Counted from the first letter of the stretch, positions 4,158-64,000 are shown. The stretch is DNA of 64,000 nucleotides from Candidatus Latescibacterota bacterium (GCA_965198095.1 OZ240239.1:118641-182640); one strand, 5' to 3'. The notes: generated from the letters alone by a model not told the origin. A program made the numbers and translations.

Positions 4158-4187
4158 CGGTACCCGTGTTTTGGTTGCCCGGTACCC
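4158..4187 (-). promoter_or_regulatory. GGTACC-N16-GGTACC box (copy 1; variant ..TTTTGGTTGCCC..) upstream of the MR/MLE-dipeptidase-Nif3-GHL operon
   Basis: CGGTACCCGTGTTTTGGTTGCCCGGTACCC lies ~70 bp upstream (gene sense) of the 4091 start. See the first finding. Confidence 0.5.
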
Positions 4188-7704: not shown

Positions 7705-9288
7705 TTATCCGCGATTGTCCTCACCTGAACAAGAGATACGCACGTGCACGTTCTTCACGACGATACCCCTGTTGGAAGGGTCCCGGTTGATCATCCTGAT
7801 CCTGTTCGACCCCTTCAGAATCTGCTCCGGCTCGACGCTGAAGCTGACCCATTCGCCATTCAGCGAGCCGCCCGAAACATCGCGGTCGTTCAGCCTCACC
7901 TCCACGCCCTCCGCAACGCTCAGTCCGTCGGCCTGAATGCTGAGCGTCACATCAGGTCTTTGACCCCGCCGATCGCCCGACGGATCCTCGCCGATCGTCA
8001 TGGTCACCGTGAAAGGCCGTGTGGGCTCGAGCTTCGCGGGACATTCCGGGTCCAGCACGGTGGGCAGCTCACAAAAACGAAGGAGATCTCGAATCTCTCG
8101 CCCCAGGAGAAACCGAAAATGCCCGTCCGAGAAATAGTCCTTGTCGAGCCGTGACAGGAAATCGGGGTCCCCCATCTCTCGCCACCCCGAGCTTTCGGGA
8201 TCGTCCGGCTGGCGTCTCTGTCCTCTCATTCCCGGTCGATTGGGGACGAGGTCGAAGTAGTTGAAGGTATAGACCCCGTCGGCGCCCGAGTGCCAGACAT
8301 TCATAGCGCGAGCGCGGAAATTTCTCATCGGAAGGCCGTCCTGAACGTCGGCCGGTCCCTCACGCCGTTTGGACCCGGACCAGCTCAGGCAGGGATAAAC
8401 CGTCACGCCGTGGCTGCGGCCCAGCGCCACCCACGCATCCCAGGGCGCCAACTCCCACTCGCCCGGAATCAGCAGGTCCACGAGCCCCTGTTCCAGCCAC
8501 GCCCTCACGTCCAGGCCGATCGCCTCGCAGCACGAAACCGAAGCGGGAATCCGCACCGCGACGAGGATCGGGCGCCTCCGCTCCAGGCCGATCCGTTCCG
8601 TCATGTCCCGAACCCGGCGAAGCAGGTCGGTCATCACATCCCGCTCCGCCTGCGTGCAGTCCTTCCCGTTCGCGTTGCACCTGAAGTGAGGCGGGTGGCG
8701 CATCCAGTCCATCTCGATCCCGTCCACGTCGTACCGCTTGCAGACATCCTCCTGCATCCCGAACGCTTTCTCCCGGACCTCCGCCTCGTCGTAGGCCGCC
8801 CCGGACCAGAATCCGAAGGCAGGAGGATCCTCGAGAGACCCGAACAGGAGCTGAGGGTTGTCCCCCTTGAACTGAGACCCCAGCATGTGCCACAGCGGGT
8901 AGGCGTCGTGGATGTCGTTCATCCGCATCGACCAGAAGACCTCGATCCCGTTCGCCCTGCAGAAGTCGACCATGATCTCCAGCGGGTCCAGACCGGCCTC
9001 GTGAAACGCCTTCGTCCGGTTCGCCTCGAACACGCCCTCTCTGGAAACGAACGGCTCGGAGACGTCGCTCATATGGGTCGCCATCCCCAGGCCGGCGCTC
9101 GTGCAGTAGAAGATCGAATCCACGTGCGTGCCGAGGAGGGGCGTCGTTCGGTCGGCCAGGAGCGCCTCGCGACTGATATCCTTGTCGCCAAGCCTATACA
9201 TAATAGTATTGCCGTCGTTATTGAAGATCACGCGCCGCCTGCGATGGGTGGCCTGCTCACGTCTCCTTCTGAGTTCGTCGAGTTGCAC
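7705..9288 (-). CDS. GHL-family TIM-barrel glycoside-hydrolase-like protein, subfamily B (N-terminal RRREQ-rich extension)
   Basis: 527 aa. Motifs ..RRVIFNNDGNTIMY.., DSIFYC, ..YDVDGIEMDWMRHP.. Likely GTG start. No signal peptide. Tandem paralog of the 9310 gene. Confidence 0.6.
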   Translation of the reverse strand: MQLDELRRRREQATHRRRRVIFNNDGNTIMYRLGDKDISREALLADRTTPLLGTHVDSIFYCTSAGLGMATHMSDVSEPFVSREGVFEANRTKAFHEAGLDPLEIMVDFCRANGIEVFWSMRMNDIHDAYPLWHMLGSQFKGDNPQLLFGSLEDPPAFGFWSGAAYDEAEVREKAFGMQEDVCKRYDVDGIEMDWMRHPPHFRCNANGKDCTQAERDVMTDLLRRVRDMTERIGLERRRPILVAVRIPASVSCCEAIGLDVRAWLEQGLVDLLIPGEWELAPWDAWVALGRSHGVTVYPCLSWSGSKRREGPADVQDGLPMRNFRARAMNVWHSGADGVYTFNYFDLVPNRPGMRGQRRQPDDPESSGWREMGDPDFLSRLDKDYFSDGHFRFLLGREIRDLLRFCELPTVLDPECPAKLEPTRPFTVTMTIGEDPSGDRRGQRPDVTLSIQADGLSVAEGVEVRLNDRDVSGGSLNGEWVSFSVEPEQILKGSNRIRMINRDPSNRGIVVKNVHVRISCSGEDNRG

Positions 9289-9309
9289 GTCCCGAATCTC
9301 CGTGAAGGA

Positions 9310-10821
9310 TCAACCCGAATGGGCAATTCGCACGTGAACGTCCTTCAGAAGGACTTTGTTCGACGGATCCCGGTTGATCACCTTGATGGTGTTCGCCCCT
9401 TTTCGGATCCGCTCCGGCTCGACGCCGTAGCTGACCCATTCCTCCTGGAGATCGCCGTTCGAAAGAGCGCGGTCGTTCAGCCTGACTTCCAGACGGTCCG
9501 CTTCGGTCAGACCGTCGACGCGGACGCTCAGCGTCACGCTGGGATTGGATCCCGAGTCCTTTCCGGGCAGGTCTTCGCCAATCGTCACAATCGCCGTGTG
9601 AGGCCGGGTCGGTAAGAGCATCACGGGACTTCCCGGGTCCAGCGCAGTCGGATACTCGTAAAACCGAAGCAGGCCTTTGATCTCCCGCCCCAGCAGAAAC
9701 CGAAAATGACCGTCCGGGAAGTAGTCCTTGTCCAGTCCGGCCAGGAGCTCGGGGTCGCCCACCTCCCGCCAGGCCGCGCTCGATGGGTCGAACAGATTGT
9801 AGGTGTGGATCCCGTCCGCACCCGCGTGCCAGACGTACATCGCCCTGGCGCGGAAGTTCCTGAGCGCGATCCCGTCCTGCACGTCGGGCGGCCCCTGACG
9901 CCGCCTGGATCCTGACCAGGTCAGATCCGGATAGACCGGCACGCCGTGCTCCCGGCCCAGCTTTACCCAGGTCTCCCACGGCGCCAGCTCCATCTCCCCG
10001 GGGACCAGCAGATCCACGAGATCCTCCTTCAGCCACGCCCTCACGTCCAGGCCCATCACTTCGCAGCACCCGACAGAGGCGGGAAGGCGCTCCGCCACGA
10101 GCATCGGGCGGCCGCGCTCCAACCCGACCTGCTCCGTCATCTCGCGAATACGGCGGTGCAGGCCCGTCATGATCTCCCGCTCCACCTGCGTGCAGTCCTC
10201 CCCATTCGTGCCGCATTTGAAATGAGGCGGGTGGCGAAGCCAGTCCAGCTCGATGCCGTCCACGTCGTACCGCTTGCAGACATCCGCAAGCAGCTCGAAC
10301 GCCCGTTCCTGAACCTCCGGTTCGTCGTAATTCAGTCCTGACCACATTCCGTACTCGGATGGGTCTTCCAGCGATCCGTGCAGAACCTCGGGGTGGTCCT
10401 TCTTGAACTGAGGAATCATCTCAGACCACCGCGGCTGGCCGTCGTGGGTATCGTTCATCCGCATAGACATGAAAATCTCGATCCCGTTCTCCCTGCAGAA
10501 GTCGATCATAATCTGAAGAGGGTCCAGACCCGCCTCGTGGAACGCCTCGATCATGTTCGGCGCGAACACACGCGTCTTCGCGAGGAACGGTTCCGCGACA
10601 TCGCTGATGTAGGACACGTGACCCAGCCCTGCGCTCCAGGGGCAGTAGAAGATCGAGTCGACGTGCGATCCGATCAGCCCTGTCGTGCGGTCCGCAAGGA
10701 GAGCTTCGCGGCTCACCTCCTTGAGGTTGTAGACAATATCGCAGCCGTCGTTGTTGAAAATGATCCGACGTTTTCGGTGTTTGGCCTGCTCTCGCTGTTC
10801 CCTCAGTCGTTTCAATTCCAT
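9310..10821 (-). CDS. GHL-family TIM-barrel glycoside-hydrolase-like protein, subfamily B
   Basis: Start refined to MELKRLREQREQ.. (M23 of ORF 9310..10887), supported by a GAGGAG Shine-Dalgarno and by the N-terminus of the 7705 paralog. Motifs IIFNNDGCDI, DSIFYC, YDVDGIELDWLRHP. Confidence 0.6.
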   Translation of the reverse strand: MELKRLREQREQAKHRKRRIIFNNDGCDIVYNLKEVSREALLADRTTGLIGSHVDSIFYCPWSAGLGHVSYISDVAEPFLAKTRVFAPNMIEAFHEAGLDPLQIMIDFCRENGIEIFMSMRMNDTHDGQPRWSEMIPQFKKDHPEVLHGSLEDPSEYGMWSGLNYDEPEVQERAFELLADVCKRYDVDGIELDWLRHPPHFKCGTNGEDCTQVEREIMTGLHRRIREMTEQVGLERGRPMLVAERLPASVGCCEVMGLDVRAWLKEDLVDLLVPGEMELAPWETWVKLGREHGVPVYPDLTWSGSRRRQGPPDVQDGIALRNFRARAMYVWHAGADGIHTYNLFDPSSAAWREVGDPELLAGLDKDYFPDGHFRFLLGREIKGLLRFYEYPTALDPGSPVMLLPTRPHTAIVTIGEDLPGKDSGSNPSVTLSVRVDGLTEADRLEVRLNDRALSNGDLQEEWVSYGVEPERIRKGANTIKVINRDPSNKVLLKDVHVRIAHSG

Positions 10822-11038
10822 ATCGCGAAACTCCTCATCTAACGCGTGCGCGAAACAAATCCCCCCTGCCCCTCCCTCGACTCGCAAGCTCGCTCGGGAC
10901 AGGCCTTTGCTAAAGGGGGGAGACTACTCGTACCGACATACTACCCATCAAGAAACGGAATCCTCCCCCTTTGGAAAAGGGGGACTGAGGGGGATTTCGT
11001 TCGGAATAAAGCATTCTGGTCAGGAACTCATACCGCAA

Positions 11039-17629: not shown

Positions 17630-17660
17630 CGGTACCCGTGTTTTGCTTTCCCGGTACCCG
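17630..17660 (-). promoter_or_regulatory. GGTACC-N16-GGTACC box (copy 2)
   Basis: CCGGTACCCGTGTTTTGCTTTCCCGGTACCCG, ~115 bp upstream of the isochorismatase start. Confidence 0.5.
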
Positions 17661-17701: not shown

Positions 17702-19255
17702 CTAGCCTCTCATCGGCAGAATCCGGTAATTGATCTCCAGGTTCACGTCGTGGAGCACGAATTCCGTCTCCACCCGCGGATTCCGTTTCCTCAGCACCGC
17801 TTCCACCTCATTCCATCCCTGCTTGATCCAGCCCCCCGCCCTTACATCATATCGAAGCGCATAGTTCCCCTGAAAGGCATTGGGGCCGGGACCTACGGTG
17901 TATTTCTGCGGAACGTCCAGCGGGACGGTCTGCGGCAGGGCTTTTCCATTCAGCTTGAACTCGTATTCGTCCTCCGAGGTCACGCCCACGAGGATCAGCT
18001 CGAGGGTCACTGCATCCACGATCCCCCGCTCACCGGCCTTCTCCAGATCGTCGCTCACCAGAAAACGGATCGTCTCTCCGGAATTCTCCTCCAGCGCAAA
18101 CGGAAGCGGATAGTCACAGCCCTCATAAGCTTCTGGCGAAGGCCACGAGCGGACAGAGCCGAAGGCGGGTGTGACCACATAAAGCTTGTCCCTGAACTCA
18201 AGCGTGGCCGGATCCCCGAGCTGCGACAGGATCTCGCGGTCATCCATCTTCGCCATCGTCTGGTGATGGAAGTTGAACAGGTAGATGCCGTCCACGCCCT
18301 GCCGCCAGGCGTTGAGCGCCCCGGCCCGCAGGGCCGCTTTCGGCGGGCGGCTGTGGCCCCCGGGCCCCACTTGCTCGGAGGTACTGCCCAGGATGCGGCA
18401 GTCCGTGCCCTCGGCCATTTCCAGGAACGACTCGAACGGAAGGTAGGTCACGGTATCCCAGTAGCATGAGGGTGAGACGAAGTCGACGAGCCCCTCCTTG
18501 ATCCATGTCCCTACCTCCAGACCGAGCTCGTGACATTTCTCCGGTGTACCGGCAACGCGAACGCCGAACCCTACAGGACGGCCCCGCGCCTCGCCGATAC
18601 GATTCAGCAGCGCCCGCGCCTCTCGCATGTATTCGGTAAGCATCGGCCGGGCTTCGTCCATGTCGGGATAGTGGTAGCCGGGGTGACGGATGAAGTCCCA
18701 CTCGAACCCGTCCGTGTCGTAGCGCGTGCATGCCTCCTCCACCAGCGCCAGACGATGGGCGCGTACCTCCGGAATCGCAAAGTTCAGACCGGTACTCTGT
18801 TTGTCTGAACGGGGCATCGGGGCGGCGGCCTTGTCGCCCAGCTCGTACTCCGGATGGCTGACCCGCCATTCACTCTTCCACTGGTAACGGGAGCCGTGCA
18901 GGTCGTTGAACCGGTTCGCGATCCAGTACTCCATCCCGGCCTCGTGGGCCGCCTCCAGCGCCACCTTCCAGGGGTCTACCCCTTCCGCCCAGAGCCTCAG
19001 CATAATCTCCTGCTGCCGCCACTCGCTCACATAGCCGACCGTCTCCATGTCGATGCCCTTGGCGCCGGGTACCTCGGTCGGCCACAGCGGAACCGCGTCG
19101 CCGAACCCGAACTGGTGGCAGACCACCGCGTCCACCTGTGTGCCGATAAACCTGCCTACCGACTCGTAGACGAACTCCTCCGGCGTCATCGGCGGTGCGC
19201 AGTAGAGCAGAAAGCTTCCGTCATTGTGGTAGAAAAATTTCGGTGGCTTGGCCAT
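17702..19255 (-). CDS. GHL-family TIM-barrel glycoside-hydrolase-like protein, subfamily A
   Basis: 517 aa. MAKPPKFFYHNDGSFLLYCAPPMTPEEFVYE.., VDAVVCH, YDTDGFEWDFIRHP. AGGAGGGAG Shine-Dalgarno. No signal peptide. Confidence 0.6.
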   Translation of the reverse strand: MAKPPKFFYHNDGSFLLYCAPPMTPEEFVYESVGRFIGTQVDAVVCHQFGFGDAVPLWPTEVPGAKGIDMETVGYVSEWRQQEIMLRLWAEGVDPWKVALEAAHEAGMEYWIANRFNDLHGSRYQWKSEWRVSHPEYELGDKAAAPMPRSDKQSTGLNFAIPEVRAHRLALVEEACTRYDTDGFEWDFIRHPGYHYPDMDEARPMLTEYMREARALLNRIGEARGRPVGFGVRVAGTPEKCHELGLEVGTWIKEGLVDFVSPSCYWDTVTYLPFESFLEMAEGTDCRILGSTSEQVGPGGHSRPPKAALRAGALNAWRQGVDGIYLFNFHHQTMAKMDDREILSQLGDPATLEFRDKLYVVTPAFGSVRSWPSPEAYEGCDYPLPFALEENSGETIRFLVSDDLEKAGERGIVDAVTLELILVGVTSEDEYEFKLNGKALPQTVPLDVPQKYTVGPGPNAFQGNYALRYDVRAGGWIKQGWNEVEAVLRKRNPRVETEFVLHDVNLEINYRILPMRG

Positions 19256-19530
19256 GCTCCCTCCTGTATTTGGCTTGGTTTCGATTTCCAGACTACCCTT
19301 TGACGGCTAAAGCGCCGCGTAGTCTGGATACAGCTTTCTCAGTTTGATCCGAGCATCGTTTGTCGTGAACCGCCAATGGACAGCCTTGCTTTTGTTGTTG
19401 CGATCGTTCGACCAGGCGGAAGTCTGCTCTTTGAGTCGTACGGCCGCTGATAGACGTCCAAGACATCCTCTATAGCGGCGACAAACGCGGCGTTCTGCTT
19501 GGGCGGAATCACCCAGCACGTTCTCAGGTG

Positions 19531-19660
19531 AGCTTACGTTCGCCAGCAGGAGCTGGCTCCTACCTTATGAACGGCTTGTGAATATTACCTGATTCCAAAC
19601 GCCGGTAAATCCGGTAGGAGCCGCCTCCCGGCGGCGAACACTTCACCCCGATACTCTCAA
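19531..19660. repeat. REP-like hairpin repeat (GGCTCCTACC ... CCGGTAGGAGCC family), single copy
   Basis: ..GCCAGCAGGAGCTGGCTCCTACCTTATGAACGGCTTGTGAATATTACCTGATT..CCGGTAAATCCGGTAGGAGCCGCCTCCCGGCGGCGAACACTTCACC. Same family as the units around the RAYT gene. Confidence 0.6.
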
Positions 19661-19912
19661 CCGACGGCCTAGAGCACCCGGATACTTGAGGCTTGGTGCT
19701 GTGAAATCCCCTCAATCCCTCCCTCGACGCGCAGGCTCGCTCACCTCGGTACGGCCGGGAGCCTACGCGGTGCAGGCGGGAAGGGCCTTTTTCAAAGGGG
19801 AAGGTTGCCTATTTGCTTTACGAACGACGAACAACGATCCACGATTTACTCCGCGCCTCTGCGGCGGACTATGCCTTTTCGAATCCGCAATTGAGTGGCG
19901 TTACCGGCTCTG

Positions 19913-19941
19913 CGGTACCCGTGTTTTGCTTTCCCGGTACC
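19913..19941 (-). promoter_or_regulatory. GGTACC-N16-GGTACC box (copy 3)
   Basis: CGGTACCCGTGTTTTGCTTTCCCGGTACC, just downstream of the 19949 gene stop. Preceded by ACGAACGACGAACAACGATCCACGA. Confidence 0.45.
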
Positions 19942-19948
19942 AGGCCCT

Positions 19949-21517
19949 TCATCCTCGCATGGGTAGAATCCGGTAGTTGATCTCGAGGCTCAGGTCGTGG
20001 AACACGAAGTCGGTCTCGATCCCGGAATTCCGCTTCTTGAGCATCGCCTCCACCTGGTTCCAGCCCTGACGGACCCAGTCGCCTACCCTGACATCGTACC
20101 GGAGGGCATAGTTCCCGTGATAGGCATTCGGGCCGGGGCCCACCCGGTAGTGTCGGTTCAGAGCGACGAGGGCCGTCTCGGGCAGCGCCCTGCCGTTCAG
20201 CTTGAACTCGAACTCATCCTCCGAGGTCAGAGAGACCACGATCAGCTCCAGCGTTACGGCATCCAGAATGCCTCTTCTGGCAGCGGTCTCCAGGTCATCG
20301 GCCACCCGGAAACGGACCGTGGTTCCCGATCCCTCCTGCAGCGTCACCGGCAGCTGATGCTCCCATCCCGCGAAAATCGACGTCTCGTGAGGGACCCGCT
20401 TCAAGGCATCAAAAGTACCGGCGATCACATAAAGTTTGTCCTTGAACGCCAGCGTCTCCAGATCTCCGAGTTGTGACAGCACATCCGAATCATCCACGTT
20501 GTAGGTGGTCTGGTGATGGAAGTTGAACACGTAGACGCCGTCCACCCCCTGCTGCCAGGCGTTCATCGCTCCGGCGCGCAGGGCGCCCGCGGGTGGGAGG
20601 GGATGCTGGCCGGGCCCGACCTGCTCCGACGTACAGCCCAGAACGCGGCATTCCGAGTCTTTCGCGATGTCCACAAATTCCTCGAACGGCGAATCGGTCG
20701 CGCTGTCCCAGTGGGGCGCAGGGGAGATGTAGTCCACGAGCCCCTCCGCGATCCACGTCTCCAGCTCCAGACCGATGGCGTGACACTTCTCCAGGGTGAC
20801 TGGACAACGCACACCGAAACCGAGCGGGCGGGCCCGACGGTCGCCGATACCGTTCAGCTTTGTTCTGGCCTCGCGCACGTAGGCGGTCAGGATCGAACCG
20901 TTTTCAGGGAGGTTGGGCACGCTGTGTCCTGGTTCCCGCTGAAAGTCCCACTCGAACCCGTCCACGTCATAGCGCTCGCAGGCCTCCAGCACGATCGCCA
21001 GACGATGAGCGCGCACTTCAGGGATCGCATAGTTCAGACCTGTACACCGCTCGCCGTAAACGCTTCCAGGGCCGTGCAGCCCCGAACCGCACTCATCGCC
21101 CAGCTCATACTCGGGATGCTGCGCGCGAAACTCGCTCCGCCACTCGTAGCGCGGGCCGTGCAGGTCGTTGAACCGCTTCCCAACCCAGTACTGCATCCCC
21201 GCCTCGTGGGCCGCCTCCAACGCCAGCTTCCACGGATCGATCCCCTCCGCCCACAGCCGCTTCATAATCTGCTGCTGCCGCCACTCGCTCACGAAGCCGA
21301 CCTTCTCCCGCTCGATTCCCTTGGCGCCCGGGACCTCCGAAGGCCAGAGCGGCACCGCGTCGCCGAAGCCGTACATGTGACAGACCACGGCGTCCACCTG
21401 GGTGCCGATGAAGCGCCCGACCGCTTCGTAGACGAACTCCTCGGGCGTCATCGGCGGGGCGCAGTAGAGCAGAAAGCTCCCGTCGTTGTTGTAGAAGAAC
21501 TTCGGAAAGGCCACCAT
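19949..21517 (-). CDS. GHL-family TIM-barrel glycoside-hydrolase-like protein, subfamily A
   Basis: 522 aa. MVAFPKFFYNNDGSFLLYCAPPMTPEEFVYE.., YDVDGFEWDFQREP. Tandem paralog of the 17702 gene. Confidence 0.6.
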   Translation of the reverse strand: MVAFPKFFYNNDGSFLLYCAPPMTPEEFVYEAVGRFIGTQVDAVVCHMYGFGDAVPLWPSEVPGAKGIEREKVGFVSEWRQQQIMKRLWAEGIDPWKLALEAAHEAGMQYWVGKRFNDLHGPRYEWRSEFRAQHPEYELGDECGSGLHGPGSVYGERCTGLNYAIPEVRAHRLAIVLEACERYDVDGFEWDFQREPGHSVPNLPENGSILTAYVREARTKLNGIGDRRARPLGFGVRCPVTLEKCHAIGLELETWIAEGLVDYISPAPHWDSATDSPFEEFVDIAKDSECRVLGCTSEQVGPGQHPLPPAGALRAGAMNAWQQGVDGVYVFNFHHQTTYNVDDSDVLSQLGDLETLAFKDKLYVIAGTFDALKRVPHETSIFAGWEHQLPVTLQEGSGTTVRFRVADDLETAARRGILDAVTLELIVVSLTSEDEFEFKLNGRALPETALVALNRHYRVGPGPNAYHGNYALRYDVRVGDWVRQGWNQVEAMLKKRNSGIETDFVFHDLSLEINYRILPMRG

Positions 21518-21721
21518 TTCCTCCCAAGGTAAATTTCGCCGTCCGGAGACGGCTTTCGGTTGACAGAGACGGCCGCCGTGATCGGATTCGTCGCCGTCTG
21601 GAGACGGATCCTACCATATGAATAGACGTCTGAAACGGTTCAACAACGAACCCACGGTACTCCTGTTCTGATTCCCGGGTGCTCGCCTTCACGATCCACG
21701 AACAACGGTTTTTACGATCCC

Positions 21722-21751
21722 CGGTACCCGTGTTTTGCTTTCCCGGTACCC
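21722..21751 (-). promoter_or_regulatory. GGTACC-N16-GGTACC box (copy 4)
   Basis: CGGTACCCGTGTTTTGCTTTCCCGGTACCC, ~205 bp upstream of the 21517 start. Preceded by ..CACGATCCACGAACAACGGTTTTTACGATCC. Confidence 0.5.
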
Positions 21752-33258: not shown

Positions 33259-33399
33259 GGGTCTTCCGGTGCTGCCGCGTCTTCCGTGAACCTTGAATTC
33301 CCTTCGTAAAGCTACGGAAAAGTGGGAAAAAGTAAAGCCTTCCAGGGGTGGTTCTCCAAACGGAATCGGCATTGGGATGGCATACACACACGTCGTCAT

Positions 33400-34250
33400 C
33401 CGCGGCTTCGCCAACAGAGTTGGCGATTGGATTGGCGCACCCTAAGTCGCCGTCTGTGGCTTCGCCAACAGAGTTGGCCATAGGATTGGCACATCTTAAA
33501 TCGCAATCTGTGGCTTCGCCAACAGAGTTGGCGATTGGATTCGTGCACCCTAAATCGCAATCTGTGGCTTCGCCAACAGAGTTGGCTCCTACCGGATTTG
33601 GGACGTTATGACATCGGTGAATCCAATAGGCCCAATAATCCGGTAGGAGCCGTCTCCCGACGGCGAACCATCTGATCGCAGTGTGGTGCCTCTGCTGAAC
33701 CTATGGGTGGCGATTGGATTCGTGCACCCTACGTCGCCGTCTGTGGCTTCGCCAACAGAGTTGGCTCCTACCGGATTCGGGACGTTTTGATATCGGTGAA
33801 TTCAATTCACCGGAAAATACGGTAGGAGCCGTCTCCCGACGGCGAACCATCTGATCGCGGTGTGGTGCCTCTGCTGAACCTATGGGTGGCGATTGGATTG
33901 GCGCACCCTAAGTCGCCGTCCATGGCTTCGCCAACAGAGTTGGCAATTGGATTGGCGCACCCTAAGTCGCCGTCCATGGCTTCGCCAACAGAGTTGGCTC
34001 CTACCGGATTCGGGACGTTTTGATATCGGTGAATTCAATTCACCGGAAAATACGGTAGGAGCCGTCTCCCGACGGCGAACCATCTGATCGCGGTGTGCGC
34101 CTCTGCTGAACCTATGGGTGGCCATAGGATTGGCGCACCCTAAATCGCAATCTGTGGCTTCGCCAACAGAGTTGGCCATGGGATTGGCGCACCCTAAATC
34201 GCAATCTGTGGCTTCGCCAACAGAGTTGGCTCCTACCGGATTTGTGGCGT
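33400..34250. repeat. mosaic BIME-like repeat array combining two repeat families
   Basis: Family 1 is a ~54-bp tandem unit: GTGGCTTCGCCAACAGAGTTGG followed by (C)GATTGGATTGGCGCACCCTAAGTCGCCGTCT-like sequence. Family 2 is the ~125-160-bp hairpin unit GGCTCCTACCGGATT..CGGTAGGAGCCGTCTCCCGACGGCGAAC, the same family as the RAYT-associated REPs. Confidence 0.7.
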
Positions 34251-35322: not shown

Positions 35323-35352
35323 CGGTACCCGTGTTTTGATTTCCCGGTACCC
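35323..35352 (-). promoter_or_regulatory. GGTACC-N16-GGTACC box (copy 5; TTTTGATTT variant)
   Basis: CGGTACCCGTGTTTTGATTTCCCGGTACCC, ~130 bp upstream of the SDR start. Preceded by AGACGAACGACGATCCAAGGTTTT. Confidence 0.5.
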
Positions 35353-41654: not shown

Positions 41655-41805
41655 CAAGCCCGGCAAATCCGGTAGGAGCCTTACCTTCGCCAGCAGGAGC
41701 TGGCTCCTACCTTATGAACGGCTTGTGAGTATTACCTGATTGCAAGCCCGGTGAATCCGGTAGGAGCCGCCTCCCGGCGGCGATCCATTCACGCCGATAC
41801 TCGCC
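41655..41805. repeat. REP-like hairpin repeats (1.3 units) on the 3' side of the RAYT pseudogene
   Basis: CCGGCAAATCCGGTAGGAGCC then a full unit CTTACCTTCGCCAGCAGGAGCTGGCTCCTACCTTATGAACGGC..CCGGTGAATCCGGTAGGAGCCGCCTCCCGGCGGCG. Confidence 0.65.
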
Positions 41806-41815
41806 TTGCTTGATC

Positions 41816-42323
41816 TTACCAATCCGGGAAAAGACACGAGAACGGCCAATCTTCTGGGGTTGCAACATATCTTTTTCTCACCGGATTTTCATGGATGTAT
41901 CCGATTTTCATGGATGTATCCGAGATGTCGAGCAAACGCCTCTTTGTTACGAAGCTTATGATCATAGAACCCGCGCTGCCAGAACCTTCCCGTCCTGCAT
42001 TGTAGTCTGTTGATTCCTCTAGCTGTATGGCTTCCGAATGAAGCCATCACGCTGGAAAGATCCTGATCCTCTCCCAAGGCCACGATCAAATGCAAGTGAT
42101 CAGGCATCAGGACGTATCCTTCACATCTGAGACGCTCATTTTCATGAAGCCAGCGCAAACACCGAACGATGAGCTCCGGCACTTCAGATTCCTCTTTCGG
42201 ATTCATTGGGTCGCGAACCAGTGGACCTGTAGTATCGTCCACGCACTTTGTTATGGAGTAGATGGATCCGGGCAAGGAATTACGCCATTTCCTCAGAGCC
42301 GATTGATGGAACCCTCTTTCCAT
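41816..42323 (-). pseudogene. REP-associated tyrosine transposase (RAYT; IS200-like Y1 HuH transposase) disrupted by a 19-bp tandem duplication
   Basis: The current ORF 41889..42323 encodes ..GYVLMPDHLHLIV.. (HuH) and ..RFWQRGFYDHKLRN..HLGYIHENRIHP, then stops. Removing one copy of the duplicated 19-mer (41881-41919, CCGGATTTTCATGGATGTAT / CCGATTTTCATGGATGTAT) restores ..YIHENPVRKRYVATPEDWPFSCLFPDW* and a 162-aa product ending at 41816. Confidence 0.7.
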
Positions 42324-42350
42324 TTTTTTACACGTATCAACCGACGGCCG

Positions 42351-42975
42351 AGCTTACCTTCGCCAGCAGGAGCTGGCTCCTACCTGATGAACGGCCTGTG
42401 AGTATTGCCTGATTGCAAGCCCGGTGAATCCGGTAGGAGCCGCCTCCCGGCGGCGAACACTTCACCTCGATCCTCGCCTTACCTTCGCCAGCAGGAGCTG
42501 GCTCCTACCTTTTGAACGGCTTGTGAGTATTGCCTGATTGCAAGCCCGGTAAATCCGGTAAGAGCCGCCTCCCGGCGGCGAACACTTCACCTCGATCCTC
42601 GCCTTACCTTCGCCAGCAGGAGCTGGCTCCTACCTCATGAACGGCTTGTGAGTATTACCTGATTTTTCAAACCCGGTAAATCCGGTAGGAGCCGCCTCCC
42701 GGCGGCGAACACTTCACCTTGATCCTCGCCTTACCTTCGCCAGCAGGAGCTGGCTCCTACCTCATGAACAGCTTGTGAGTATTACCTGATTTCAAACCCG
42801 GTAAATCCGGTAAGAGCCGCCTCCCGGCGGCGAACACTTCACCTCGATCCTCGCCTTACCTTCGCCAGCAGGAGCTGGCTCCTACCTCATGAACAGCTTG
42901 TGAGTATTACCTGATTGCAAGCCCGGTAAATCCGGTAGGAGCCGCCTCCCGGCGGCGAACACTTCACTTCGCAGA
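42351..42975. repeat. tandem array of five ~126-bp REP-like hairpin units on the 5' side of the RAYT pseudogene
   Basis: Five near-identical tandem units CTTACCTTCGCCAGCAGGAGCTGGCTCCTACCT[CT]ATGAAC[AG]GCTTGTGAGTATT[AG]CCTGATT..CCCGGTAAATCCGGTA[GA]GAGCCGCCTCCCGGCGGCGAACACTTCACCTCGATCCTCGC. Each contains the GGCTCCTACC/GGTAGGAGCC inverted repeat. No unique spacers. Confidence 0.75.
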
Positions 42976-43186
42976 AAGCAAGTATTGGGTGTGCCGTTTT
43001 GTCGTCAAAAGCCGATCGGAGACTAAGTTGTTGAATTTCACGCACCTGAAGCGAGTCTCGTCGCGGGTGTGGATCGATCTGCAAAAACCGGTCTGGGAAG
43101 ATAGGTAGGTAGGGCTTGAACGCTAAAACGTTCTTGGAGGAAGGAGACAGGATCGGTCGGCTGGCGCGCCCACTCTTGCCTCAAGG

Positions 43187-49474: not shown

Positions 49475-49575
49475 CCAAGAATCTCCTTACCGATTCTCTT
49501 CGTCAATGACGCAATCTATTGACTATCGTTTCCTTTCTCCGGGCGTTCCCGCCTCCGCCGTCATCTTTTGACTTC

Positions 49576-49616
49576 CCGGTACCCCGTGTCTTGTTCTCCC
49601 GGAACCCGGTACCCGG
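49576..49616 (-). promoter_or_regulatory. GGTACC-box variant (CCCGGTACCCCGTGTCTTGTTCTCCCGGAACCCGGTACCCGG)
   Basis: ~100 bp upstream of the enolase-superfamily dehydratase start. Has an extra GGAACC half-site. Confidence 0.45.
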
Positions 49617-61051: not shown

Positions 61052-61084
61052 ACGACTCTAATTTTCTTATCACCAGAGTAACAA

Positions 61085-61165
61085 TCGCCGCCGGGAGGCG
61101 GCTCCTACCGGATCAATGAGTGCGATGTATCTGGTAGGAGCCAACTCCCGTTGGCGACGAAATGA
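61085..61165. repeat. REP-like hairpin (short member of the GGCTCCTACC family)
   Basis: CGCCGCCGGGAGGCGGCTCCTACCGGATCAATGAGTGCGATGTATCTGGTAGGAGCCAACTCCCGTTGGCGACG. Confidence 0.55.
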
Positions 61166-61191: not shown

Positions 61192-62712
61192 TTACTGTTT
61201 AGGAATCTGCAACGCATAAAGCTTCGCGTTGTCCATGGTAAAACGAACTCTGACCGGGAGATGCGCTCCGATATCCGAGTTTCCCCTCCACGTGAACGTA
61301 TGCGCCAGGCTGTCCCCCTTGAAGGTATCACAGTCCTCTCTGGAAAAGCCATCAACAACGTATCCATCCGAGGTTAGAAGTTCGGCGTCAATATAACCTC
61401 CGGACGCAACGGCGTTGACGACAAGTCGATTGCCCGGCGATTGAAGCGGTTTCGTCAACAGTGTAGGCGGGTAATTATTCTTGGTGCTTCTGTGCGAATT
61501 GTCGATCGCGTCGATGGAGACGAATCCGTCCAGCCGCAGCTTGGCCAGCCCGAGCTTTGTGTTACCACCCGCGTCGTGGCGGTTGTCCGTCCCGGTATAG
61601 TAAACCCAGTGCTCATCCCCGACCCGCATCGGGGCCTGTAACATTGCGCACATGCCCCACTCCCAGCTTCCATCCGGACCGAGGGGCAGAAAAGGCCCGG
61701 TTCTCAGCCGTTCCCAGTGGAAACTGTCCCTGCTGTGCGAAAGGTACATATCCATCGTGTCGTGCGCCGTGTGATGTGTCCTCACGAAGCCGAGGTAGAT
61801 GCTCTCGTAGTAGAACGCCTCCATGCCGTAGAAGTCCGTATCGAACGGATCCAGCGCGTCCTTGTCGATCACGGGCGCAGACATCGACCAGTGGATCAGG
61901 TCGTTGCTCTGCATCCTCTGGATCGATCGCTCCGTCCTGTGCACCAGCATCGGACTTGGATAGGGATTTCGACAAAATCCAAGGTACTTCTTGCTCACGG
62001 GATCATACATGATACTAAGCGTCTCGTCTCCTCGCCCGGCACTGATCGGCCCCGGGTCCGGCGTCCAGTGGATCCCGTCGGGGGAATGGAAGACCGCCGG
62101 CTGTCCTCCTCCGTGACCCATCTTGTAGCGTCTGGACGGATCGGCCTCAGGATCCTTCACGACGTATTGACACTTGGTCTCGTAAACGATGTTCGTGTCG
62201 CTGCCATCGGTGTGTTTCACCACGCCCAGCGGCGGCGTTTCCCACTTGATGCCGTCCTCCGAGGTGGCATACAGGATCCTATAGTTATAGCTTCGCACGG
62301 GCACACCTTCTACCGTCAGGCCGTTGTACCACATCTTCCAGATCCCGTCTTCTTCGTCGTAGAGGATCCTTGCCGGCCACGGCGCAGACCTGCCCTCCCA
62401 GTCGTGCGACCGCTGCATGATCGGATTGCCTTCGTACCGCACGGGCTGATTCACCGTCCGCGTCACGAAGGCGGTCGCCCTGAGCAGATGCCCTGGTACG
62501 TCCGCTTCGATCTTGTCGGTTGCCTCGCTCCATCCGTCCAGGTTCGTTCGCTCCTCGGCTGACGCCGGTATCCGCGGCTGTACCCATCGGGCCGTCTCCG
62601 CGAGACGAGGAGAAATCCAGCGCGTCGTCTCGATAATGTGGTCGTCCACAAAAAGCTGCTTGCGTGTACCGACATCAACGATCAGTTCTGATCCTGGAAC
62701 CTGTAACCTCAT
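61192..62712 (-). CDS. beta-propeller glycoside-hydrolase-like protein (LF[VL]DD / LY[AS]FRV family)
   Basis: 506 aa. MRLQVPGSELIVDVGTRKQLFVDDHIIE.., SEDGIKWETPPLG, SPDGIHWTPDPGP, SRDSFHWERLRTGP, C-terminal ..AKLYALQIPKQ. No signal peptide. Confidence 0.6.
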   Translation of the reverse strand: MRLQVPGSELIVDVGTRKQLFVDDHIIETTRWISPRLAETARWVQPRIPASAEERTNLDGWSEATDKIEADVPGHLLRATAFVTRTVNQPVRYEGNPIMQRSHDWEGRSAPWPARILYDEEDGIWKMWYNGLTVEGVPVRSYNYRILYATSEDGIKWETPPLGVVKHTDGSDTNIVYETKCQYVVKDPEADPSRRYKMGHGGGQPAVFHSPDGIHWTPDPGPISAGRGDETLSIMYDPVSKKYLGFCRNPYPSPMLVHRTERSIQRMQSNDLIHWSMSAPVIDKDALDPFDTDFYGMEAFYYESIYLGFVRTHHTAHDTMDMYLSHSRDSFHWERLRTGPFLPLGPDGSWEWGMCAMLQAPMRVGDEHWVYYTGTDNRHDAGGNTKLGLAKLRLDGFVSIDAIDNSHRSTKNNYPPTLLTKPLQSPGNRLVVNAVASGGYIDAELLTSDGYVVDGFSREDCDTFKGDSLAHTFTWRGNSDIGAHLPVRVRFTMDNAKLYALQIPKQ

Positions 62713-62752
62713 TGATAAGCCTCCTTATCTCGATCCACGATTAGCGGGTTTG

Positions 62753-62790
62753 CGGTACCCGGTACCCGTATTTGACTTCCCAGTACCCGG
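62753..62790 (-). promoter_or_regulatory. GGTACC-box variant (CGGTACCCGGTACCCGTATTTGACTTCCCAGTACCCGG)
   Basis: ~40 bp upstream of the 62712 start. Preceded by CGATCCACGATTAGCGGGTTT. Confidence 0.45.
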
Positions 62791-62793
62791 TCT

Positions 62794-64000
62794 CTACTCT
62801 TGCGGAATTTGCAGGGCGAAGAGTCTCGCGTTATCCATGTAAAACCGAACTCTGATGGGAATGCAGCCACCTATATCCGCGTTTCCTTTCCAGGTGAACG
62901 TATGCGCCAGACTGTCCCCGTTGAACGTATCGCAGTCTTCCCTGGAATGCCCGTCGATCACGTTTCCATCTGTTGTCAACAACTCGGCGTCGAGATATCC
63001 CCCGGAAGCGACCGCGTTCACGACGAGCCGGTTTCCCGGCGATTGTAGCGGTTTGGTCAACAGCGTCGGCGGGTAGTTCCTTCCCGCGCGTCGGTGCGCG
63101 TTGTCGATCGCGTCGATCGACACGAACCCGTCCAGGCGAAGCTTCGCCAGCCCCAGACCCGCAGCATCACCATCCCCACCATCGTGCAGTCCCGCTACGC
63201 CCGTATAGTAGAACCAGAGCTCATCACCGACCCTCATCGGGGCCTGAAACATCTGGGCCATGCCCCATTCCCAACTCCCGTCTGATCCTCGAGGCAGAAA
63301 AGGTCCGGTCCGTATCCGCTCCCAGTGGAAACTGTCTCTGCTGTGGGACAGCCACACCTCCATGTGATCAGGGCCCGTTCGGTGAATGTTCACAAATCCC
63401 AGATACATACTCTCATAGTACATCCCCTGCAAACCGTAAAAGTCGGTGTCGAAAGGATCCAGCGGGTCCTTGTCGATGATGGGGGCCGATATCGACCAGT
63501 GGATCAGATCATTGCTCTGCAGCCTCTGGGTCGATCGCTCCGTCCGGTGGGTCAGCCACGGTTCAGGATAGACGTTTCGGCAGAACCCGAGATATTTCTT
63601 GCTCACGGGGTCATACATGATGGACAGGGTCTCGTCCCCTCGGTCGCTCTGGGTCGGACCCGGGTCGGGCGTCCAGTGGATTCCGTCGGGGGAATGGTAG
63701 ACCGAGGCATCGATCGGGGGGTCCCAGTGGAGCAACGGACCGTGACCCATCTTGTAACGCCTGGAAGGGTCTGCGTCTTTGTCCTTCACAACGTACTGAC
63801 TCTTGCATTCGTTCACGATATTCGTGTCGTTCCCATCTCTGTCTTTCGCGACCCCCAGCGTCGGTCTTTCCCACGTGATGCCGTCTTCAGACGTGGCATA
63901 CATCGTGTTGTACACGATCTTCCGTTCAGGGAACTCGTCGACGGTCACGCCGAGGTACCACATCTTCCAGATCCCGTCTTCCTCATCGTACATAATGTCC
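62794..64000 (-). CDS. beta-propeller glycoside-hydrolase-like protein, tandem paralog (5' end outside window)
   Basis: Collinear with 61192-62712 at ~75% identity (..YDEEDGIWKMWY.., C-terminal ..ARLFALQIPQE). Confidence 0.6.
   Translation of the reverse strand, partial: DIMYDEEDGIWKMWYLGVTVDEFPERKIVYNTMYATSEDGITWERPTLGVAKDRDGNDTNIVNECKSQYVVKDKDADPSRRYKMGHGPLLHWDPPIDASVYHSPDGIHWTPDPGPTQSDRGDETLSIMYDPVSKKYLGFCRNVYPEPWLTHRTERSTQRLQSNDLIHWSISAPIIDKDPLDPFDTDFYGLQGMYYESMYLGFVNIHRTGPDHMEVWLSHSRDSFHWERIRTGPFLPRGSDGSWEWGMAQMFQAPMRVGDELWFYYTGVAGLHDGGDGDAAGLGLAKLRLDGFVSIDAIDNAHRRAGRNYPPTLLTKPLQSPGNRLVVNAVASGGYLDAELLTTDGNVIDGHSREDCDTFNGDSLAHTFTWKGNADIGGCIPIRVRFYMDNARLFALQIPQE

Follow-up and report, generated by a model that had tools for sequence, protein, structure and literature searches.

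Sequences of the repetitive extragenic palindromic (REP) type are usually dispersed, in more than 100 copies per genome. Those headed by the tetranucleotide GTAG have been reported from Proteobacteria, Cyanobacteria, Chloroflexi and the Planctomycetes-Verrucomicrobia-Chlamydiae (PVC) group, and Chlorobi and Bacteroidetes have been reported with transposase-less CGTC repeats only (Di Nocera et al. 2013, PMC3733652). In the same survey, the hallmark of the GTAG-1 and GTAG-2 classes is a pair of nucleotides left unpaired between the head and the stem, together with a conserved 3-nt motif opposite, and GTAG-1 families are reported to be clustered for the most part, their dimers repeated in tandem and their GTAG termini typically facing inward ('TT'). 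Of the tyrosine transposases associated with REPs (RAYTs), subclass 2.5 of the TnpAY1 proteins, which equals RAYT Group 3 of Bertels (2017), carries the motifs DH[LF]H, WQ and YI[VI]ANP and clusters with Xanthomonad and Pseudomonad sequences, and Bacteroidetes have RAYTs of subclasses 2.4, 2.6 and 1.2 with atypical structures (Quentin et al. 2018, PMC6006769). The REPtron of Escherichia coli combines tnpAREP (yafM; solved structure 4ER8) with bacterial interspersed mosaic elements (BIMEs), and its transposase gene has been lost by deletion in some strains (PMC3733652, citing Ton-Hoang 2012).

Here we compare with these systems a locus in a stretch of 64,000 nucleotides (the window) from Candidatus Latescibacterota bacterium (GCA_965198095.1 OZ240239.1:118641-182640), Latescibacterota being a phylum of the Fibrobacteres-Chlorobi-Bacteroidetes (FCB) group. 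We assign a probability of roughly 0.88 to its being a REPtron, that is, a single-copy, chromosomally fixed RAYT of the Y1/HUH type (RAYT-1) bracketed by its cognate REPs, with arrays that are probably orphaned in this strain. The system is of the ordinary, well-known REP/RAYT kind, in a newly documented lineage, Latescibacterota. With the E. coli REPtron it shares the REP-gene-REP layout, the family of HUH/Y1 monomers and alternating BIME-like arrays. The locus consists of the following features:

42353 to 42977, unstranded: five 125-bp REP dimers in tandem, similar to REPINs (REP doublets forming hairpins) and BIMEs; seen by Tandem Repeats Finder (TRF), as repeat families D5/D6, in the REP map, in the unit alignment and by folding.
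41816 to 42323, minus strand: RAYT-1 pseudogene; identified by Pfam Y1_Tnp, NF047646, the alignment to 4ER8 and intact alleles in relatives.
41884 to 41923, minus strand: 19-bp tandem duplication GATTTTCATGGATGTATCC, 2.1 copies by TRF, which frameshifts RAYT-1.
41655 to 41805, unstranded: 3' REP cluster of RAYT-1, in which a truncated REP-A head (41671-41680) is fused to a full A/B dimer (41680-41805).

The tandem array lies directly 5' of the Y1/HUH gene. TRF places it at 42353-42971 with a period of 125, 4.9 copies, 95% matches and 0 indels, in agreement with the initial annotation, which had described five near-identical units of about 126 bp 5' of the RAYT. Every unit is an inverted pair of REP-B GTAGGAGCCAGCTCCTGCTGGCGAAG on the minus strand (heads at 42383, 42508, 42633, 42760 and 42885) and REP-A GTAGGAGCCGCCTCCCGGCGGCGAAC on the plus strand (42433, 42558, 42685, 42810 and 42935), and the inverted repeat GGCTCCTACC...GGTAGGAGCC that had been quoted for the unit turns out to be the two REP heads. 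The facing GTAG heads are separated by about 47 nt, and an outer linker of about 25 nt leads to the following unit, so that a REPIN-like dimer of about 100 nt and its linker make up the 125-bp array unit. Each REP runs from GTAG through GA and a GC stem of 6 bp with a loop of 4 nt to GAA. When period-defined units are aligned, they differ pairwise at 5-9 positions, almost all of them in the inner spacer; the exceptions to this confinement are two heads, at 42558 and 42810, in which GTAG has mutated to GTAA. Variability of spacer and REP was judged on these period-defined units, as REPs picked by regular expression are biased, the expression fixing most REP positions. The variants are common to different units in a mosaic pattern. 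In the whole window, GGTAGGAGCC occurs 25 times at up to one mismatch where 3.7 would be expected, and none of 100 shuffles gives as many as 25; in all, there are 24 REPs at six sites in 64 kb. The initial annotation had considered such an array large for REPs. This we do not share: five units are not unusual, because GTAG-1 dimers are typically clustered in tandem (PMC3733652) and arrays of the same ~126-bp period occur in an unrelated organism of ~70% GC.

Pairing of the stems was examined across all copies. The window holds five stem variants, namely GCC/GGC, AGC/GCT, GTC/GAC and AAC/GTT, the last in two forms with loops of 3 nt and 4 nt, and all of them keep the frame GTAG-GA-stem...stem-GAA. 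GTAG is intact in 22 of the 24 aligned REPs, the other two being the array copies that read GTAA. Among these 24, 98.3% of stem cells pair and a change in either variable pair never affects one side alone, an outcome matched by none of 500 shuffles, while sliding the partner strand leaves only 14-58% paired. Over all fetched loci, from many genomes, 241 REPs were compared, which show more than 15 stem variants; in 204 of them the variable positions of the stem, four in number, match their partners completely, and the pattern by which most of the 241 were collected did not demand stem complementarity. A lone REP folds into a 6-bp hairpin (-7.5 to -8.4 kcal/mol) and the dimers fold as long hairpins (z = -3.3 to -5.8; the array at 42353, z = -3.3). 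Rfam gave no family at its gathering threshold in the window, and a terminator scan around the arrays predicted no intrinsic terminator-like site.

By these features the window REPs are of the Pseudomonas-type GTAG-1 class, as judged from sequence. The format is that of the GTAG-1 REP-RAYT systems of Pseudomonas and Xanthomonas, with GTAG 2 nt from the stem, and between REP-B and GTAGGAGCCAGCTTGCTGGCGAA, a REP of P. entomophila, the loop is the one difference (PMC2817692, Table 1). Those systems also resemble ours in the DHLH and WQ motifs of the protein, in the D at the position of E100 (PMC6006769), and in having several paralogous RAYTs in one genome, every one of them paired with a REP variant of its own; the host here, however, belongs to the Latescibacterota (FCB) and not to the Gammaproteobacteria. 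The REPs of E. coli, by contrast, form long hairpins with bulges, and their GTAG stands immediately at the foot.

The disrupted open reading frame (ORF) at 41889-42323 on the minus strand matches Pfam Y1_Tnp. The duplication repeats the codons for GYIHEN and shifts the frame, which breaks just after YIHEN; the last 23 amino acids are replaced by RIHP*, and the DWPFS segment conserved in the family is lost. When one 19-bp copy is removed, an ORF of 162 amino acids is restored, and this protein scores 115 bits on the NCBIfam equivalog NF047646, 'REP-associated tyrosine transposase' (cutoff 80), and 21 bits on the IS200 model NF033573 (cutoff 55). Among proteins of solved structure, E. coli TnpAREP (4ER8) is its best match, at E = 1.7e-11. 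The HUH motif PDHLHLIV (DHLH), the WQ motif and the tyrosine motif GYIHENP are present and align to H59/H61 and Y115/N119 of 4ER8. Equivalents of W94, Q95, H101, R104, Y115 and N119 are conserved; W94, Q95, H101 and R104 are the residues that contact GTAG (PMC6006769, PMC3479197). E100 is replaced by D, the substitution of TnpAY1 subclasses 2.5 and 2.7 (Quentin et al., PMC6006769). Assignment to subclass 2.5, judged here by motifs, would have to accommodate a tyrosine motif that reads YIHENP or YIYENP instead of YI[VI]ANP, and a length of 162 instead of about 151 amino acids. TnpAREP of E. coli has in addition an autoinhibitory C-terminal tail of about 25 amino acids (E161), which is missing in RAYT-1, the alignment ending at E. 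coli residue 138 (PMC3479197). The REPtron proposed by the initial annotation is thus borne out by the 115 bits on NF047646, the likeness to 4ER8, the GTAG head and GC hairpin with compensatory stem changes, and the flanking REPs.

On the 3' side of RAYT-1, the cluster at 41655-41805 corresponds to the 1.3 or so units noted there before, as a truncated head at 41671 and a full unit at 41680-41805. It is oriented as the upstream array, so that direct repeats bracket RAYT-1. REPs stand on both sides of the RAYT in the window and in the orthologous loci of three other sources. The closest homologue of RAYT-1 (80% identity, 162 amino acids, intact) is found in the Candidatus Latescibacterota metagenome-assembled genome (MAG) OZ252100.1 (L120), which is collinear with the window from 33 to 51.5 kb with neighboring proteins 79-96% identical; in both, the RAYT occupies the slot between the Fe-ADH_2 and cyclase genes. 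The RAYT of OZ252100.1 is flanked by REPs of the same class, REP matches occur at no fewer than five sites across about 2 Mb, and six of six REPs in L120 lie between called genes. TARA ocean contigs encode a RAYT that is 77% identical and flanked by the same A and B REPs. In all, the REP-RAYT-REP layout is seen in the window, L120, L121-L123 and L129-L134. RAYT-1 occurs once in the window, and its fixed syntenic position speaks, at the level of sequence comparison, for a vertically inherited, domesticated gene and not for a mobile insertion sequence (IS).

Close relatives disclose the fate of this gene. A look-up of the window cyclase protein led to ten contigs with flanking DNA 91-99.7% identical, depending on the segment; exact-protein look-ups with the Fe-ADH_2 and AcnX proteins gave no record. 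In four relatives (L130, L132, L133 and L134) RAYT-1 is intact, 100% identical to our reconstruction, and the 19-mer occurs once. In L129 and L131 the gene is interrupted by an inserted IS630-family element that has terminal repeats of its own. In L128 RAYT-1 is absent and exactly one A/B dimer lies between the same outer flanks, the remnant expected of recombination between the direct-repeat dimers that bracket RAYT-1. Judged from these sequences, RAYT-1 is inactivated in three separate ways among close relatives, by duplication, IS insertion and deletion. The 19-mer is found twice in the window and once in each of six relatives, so the duplication is specific to the window strain, in which the gene has been broken recently. 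The upstream array also varies by source (1, ~2, 3, 3, 3+, 5 and 5 dimers), in whole 125-bp steps, and because of these whole-unit steps and the mosaic sharing of variants between units, such changes in copy number are better explained by unequal recombination. Aligned to 31.6-52.4 kb of the window, L128-L134 are mosaics whose nucleotide identity shifts across the REPtron; L129 falls from 99.3% on the cyclase side to 90.9% on the Fe-ADH side, and L128 has 97.8% versus 91-93%. The REP arrays may mark recombination breakpoints.

These fates are comparable to the loss of RAYTs from REPIN-RAYT populations, through a frameshift in Neisseria gonorrhoeae and also within P. chlororaphis clades (Bertels and Rainey, bioRxiv 10.1101/2021.07.10.451892), where likewise a RAYT is frameshifted and REPINs persist. 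The systems of these authors also share with ours vertical inheritance, a single copy per type and a spacer more variable than the REPs. What sets the present case apart are three independent lesions of RAYT-1 and the loss of a second RAYT among close relatives of an uncultured lineage.

This second RAYT, RAYT-2, belongs to another array. It and the remaining REP copies of the window are as follows:

33392 to 34250, unstranded: relic of a second REPtron; C/D REPs and 54-bp headless units, with RAYT-2 present in the array of relatives.
19533 to 19656, unstranded: solitary A/B dimer (REPIN), 91-95% identical to array units; fold -29.4 kcal/mol, z = -5.8.
21587 to 21616, minus strand: one degenerate REP on its own, GTAGGATCCGTCTCCAGACGGCGA, lying upstream of a gene that spans 19949-21517.
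61081 to 61161, unstranded: short REP dimer of REP-A (head 61108, minus) and REP-E GTAGGAGCCAACTCCCGTTGGCGA (head 61134, plus).

Within 33392-34250, three REP-C heads (GTAGGAGCCGTCTCCCGACGGCGAA) lie on the plus strand (33643, 33822 and 34055) and four REP-D heads (GTAGGAGCCAACTCTGTTGGCGAA) on the minus strand (33592, 33771, 34004 and 34236). Five 'headless' 54-bp units carry the D hairpin without GTAG, and the periods of 179 and 233 bp resolve into 125+54 and 125+2x54. In five relatives (L129-L133) an intact RAYT-2 of 162 amino acids is found between an SDR gene and a gene for a 425-aa protein. It shares 55% identity with RAYT-1, reaches 100 bits on NF047646 and shows the motifs DHVH, WQ and YIYENP. 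C/D-type REPs stand on both of its sides, and the overlap of one of them with RAYT-2 is limited to the stop codon. In the window RAYT-2 is gone without trace, and the C/D REPs and headless units remain at the site. The mosaic array is, on this comparative evidence, the relic of a second REPtron whose RAYT was deleted, and the window strain is devoid of an intact RAYT at least at these two loci. The REP family had been correctly recognized at 33400-34250 by the initial annotation; the site is more than a place of dispersed copies.

At the RAYT-2 site of OZ252100.1 (L120 19570-19986) lies a different gene, encoding a 138-aa IS200-type Y1 protein that scores 77 bits on NF033573; its Y...Q..HH motif is like that of Quentin subclass 1.2, and a C/D-type REP pair precedes it. 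A dimer period of about 125-127 bp recurs in the A/B array, in the C/D array and in the unrelated ~70% GC organism from JGI sample Ga0114931 (L140, L141 and L156), where the split between inner and outer spacer differs (51+75 versus 43+84).

All six REP-bearing sites of the window fall between homology-supported ORFs, in keeping with the extragenic location expected for REPs by the initial annotation. That annotation had also listed single copies near 19531-19660 and 61085-61165, which are present at 19533-19656 and 61081-61161; the copy at 21587-21616 is absent from its list, and the orthologue of this copy in L138 carries an intact GTAGGAGCC head. The short dimer at 61081-61161 has a spacer of only about 23 nt, it couples the A stem with the different E stem (fold -25.5 kcal/mol, z = -5.6), and it is placed between the AcnX gene on one side and a gene for a 506-aa protein on the other. 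The solitary REPIN at 19533-19656 is situated in a 694-bp intergenic region beside an IS630-like transposase fragment and is conserved in L138. This fragment (IPPKQNAAFVAAIEDVLDVYQRPYD, an ORF of 57 amino acids at 19339-19512 on the minus strand), which abuts the REPIN, has no NCBIfam match and does not resemble the IS by which RAYT-1 is disrupted in relatives. The 13-mer TCAACCGACGGCC borders both the solitary REPIN (19657-19669) and the RAYT-proximal end of the array (42337-42349), with no further match in the window at up to one mismatch; 2 of 100 shuffles reach two. Because the 13-mer is common to both flanks, it hints that the solitary REPIN derived from the RAYT-proximal copy plus a piece of its flank.

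A mechanism for the REPtron can be drawn by analogy. As in E. coli TnpAREP, the RAYT would bind the REP hairpin in single-stranded DNA and read the 5' GTAG (PMC3479197, PMC6006769), then cleave and rejoin at a nearby dinucleotide; dependence on the GTAG guide is likened here to the E. coli case, the window RAYT being known from its sequence. Such cleavage and rejoining would seed copies at other intergenic sites (19.5, 21.6 and 61.1 kb), and we infer from this analogy that the dispersed copies were made by RAYT action. The copy number of the arrays would later be altered by unequal recombination or slippage between direct repeats. In this strain RAYT-1 is frameshifted by the 19-bp duplication just after its catalytic tyrosine motif, and RAYT-2 has been removed via recombination of the REP arrays on either side. 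Because RAYT-1 is frameshifted and RAYT-2 deleted, both arrays of the window are probably orphaned and no longer able to transpose. The arrays persist as extragenic hairpins and may keep a role in RNA or DNA structure, as REPs elsewhere, although such a role is speculation.

Several points weigh against the orphaned REPtron. The truncated product of 144 amino acids retains HUH, WQ, the tyrosine and the asparagine equivalent to N119, and still scores 87 bits on NF047646, matching profile positions 4-131 of 146 with 132-146 lost, so that residual activity is possible; we infer the truncated protein to be inactive. For the 19-bp duplication, an artefact of assembly is conceivable. Also, among the relatives compared, no pair of filled and empty sites was found for a dispersed copy, and mobility was not seen directly. 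As to the gene itself, the earlier designation as a pseudogene is right, because four close relatives have the 19-mer once and a protein 100% identical to the reconstruction.

Other explanations of the repeats deserve consideration. The array could be a plain minisatellite, that is, a hairpin-bearing intergenic segment (a terminator or mRNA stabilizer) amplified by slippage or unequal crossing-over, with the Y1 gene there incidentally. Recombination clearly shapes the array, as its size of 1-5 among close relatives, in whole 125-bp steps, and the mosaic variants between units, suggestive of conversion or unequal exchange, would lead one to expect. Amplification in place, however, does not account for the same REPs flanking orthologous RAYTs in a different species and on TARA contigs, for REPs on both sides of a 34%-identical RAYT in an Acidobacteriota MAG, or for copies at three further unlinked sites of the window; moreover, the GTAG head is invariant, which would be useless to a terminator, and no terminator-like site is predicted in the region. 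We consider this explanation improbable. It is less probable again that RAYT-1 belongs to an autonomous IS of the IS200/IS605 type, its flanking hairpins being the ends of the element and the dispersed copies solo ends or miniature inverted-repeat transposable elements (MITEs). The Y1_Tnp fold family is indeed the same, and subterminal hairpins with a 5' tetranucleotide are found in IS608 (PMC6006769). Yet the window has a single copy, which stands at the same syntenic site in a species whose neighboring proteins are 79-96% identical, the protein reaches 115 bits with the RAYT equivalog but no more than 21 bits with the model for IS200 (cutoff 55), no tnpB is present, and the flanking dimers are direct and not inverted repeats.

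A slim chance is left to the 125-bp unit being a MITE moved by a DDE transposase, for example of the nearby IS630 family, next to which the Y1 gene would be a bystander. Imperfect terminal inverted repeats of about 27 bp in the unit, an IS630-like fragment abutting the solo copy (19.3-19.5 kb) and an IS630-family element active in relatives would fit such a scenario. Against this, the terminal repeats of the L129 IS (CTAGCCCGAATAATTCATAAATTTGCTG...) are unrelated to REPs and its transposase is without a match in the window, a TA target duplication is not evident at the solo copy, and each half of the unit folds back on itself as a hairpin whose stems covary, a property that the terminal repeat of a DDE element can do without. 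Finally, palindromic repeats at regular spacing recall CRISPR arrays, where repeats alternate with unique spacers. Here the would-be 'spacers' recur in all units and at 19.5 kb with 90-96% identity, the orientation of the repeats alternates, and no Rfam or CRISPR-type family matches. The initial annotation had seen no unique spacers either, and the unit alignment rules this candidate out, leaving it a negligible probability.

How far the REPtron extends beyond this lineage can be gauged from the searches made. The nearest relatives of the RAYT in a library of 1.84 billion proteins are 41-54% identical and all metagenomic; the two that are named are called 'hypothetical protein' and labelled Latescibacteria and Gemmatimonadetes. 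Plasmids searched by tblastn gave five weak RAYT matches, all at 38% identity or less, and RAYT-1 is 32% identical to a Pseudomonas plasmid RAYT. A degenerate REP pattern, scanned against genome contigs, was found in at least 119 stretches, the window's own genome not being among those listed, and among these matches the REP core recurs in MAGs assigned to Brocadiaceae/Scalindua, Nitrospirota, Nitrospinota, Acidobacteriota, Victivallales and others. In an Acidobacteriota MAG (CAZAEY010000013.1, L050 254-905), a RAYT 34% identical to RAYT-1 has GTAGGAGCCGCCTCAGGCGGCGA on both sides in the same orientation; with REPs near-unchanged and a RAYT at 34%, the REP core has been kept across phyla while the protein strongly diverged. 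A metagenome scan for the full A/B dimer gave no match, and a looser scan for single A/B REPs gave 18 contigs, mostly of other organisms.

In the literature searched, no paper ties RAYTs or REPs to Latescibacterota or Gemmatimonadota, the pairings of RAYT with a phylum name being spurious. The initial annotation knew of no RAYT/REP system in an FCB-type lineage; this is too broad, as RAYT-like genes of subclasses 2.4, 2.6 and 1.2 are known in Bacteroidetes (PMC6006769), and it stands for the canonical GTAG-REP/RAYT system, which we did not find described for Latescibacterota or Gemmatimonadota. Our findings extend that system to Latescibacterota and probably Gemmatimonadota, both FCB phyla. 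That a Pseudomonas-type REP core is near-unchanged across distant phyla, with RAYTs 34-55% identical, bears on the age of the REPIN-RAYT association. Relatives with intact, frameshifted, IS-disrupted and deleted RAYTs offer a natural experiment on whether REPINs outside Proteobacteria decay once their RAYT is lost. In the annotation of these MAGs, one 'hypothetical protein' and two large repeat arrays are explained. Going further, we may conjecture, tentatively and with the odds rather against us, that the population is discarding its RAYTs through selection (REPIN-host conflict) and not through drift, the window strain possibly being RAYT-null, and that GTAGGAGC-hairpin-GCGAA REPs and their RAYTs form one ancient clade (FCB, Acidobacteriota, anammox Planctomycetota, Nitrospirota/Nitrospinota and Gammaproteobacteria) and are not a gammaproteobacterial invention.

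Two further features of the window may be added. Paralogues of about 500-525 amino acids, arranged in tandem or dispersed, occupy 45-1121, 7705-10887, 17702-21517 and 61192-63993 at 65-83% nucleotide identity. This family has no confident Pfam match (GHL10 was 'faint' in one relative), and its arrangement suggests an expansion of the family specific to this lineage, in a region resembling one for carbohydrate utilization. A bipartite motif, CGGTACCCG-N12-CCGGTACC, is present in five exact copies, all on the plus strand (4158-4186, 17630-17658, 19913-19941, 21722-21750 and 35323-35351), where 0 are expected, with looser copies at 49565-49608 and 62725-62790. Copies lie about 50-190 nt upstream of the starts of minus-strand genes, with the exception of that at 19913, where the IS fragment and the REPIN intervene. 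The motif is a candidate operator or promoter common to the paralogous ~520-aa genes and to PhyH/SDR genes.

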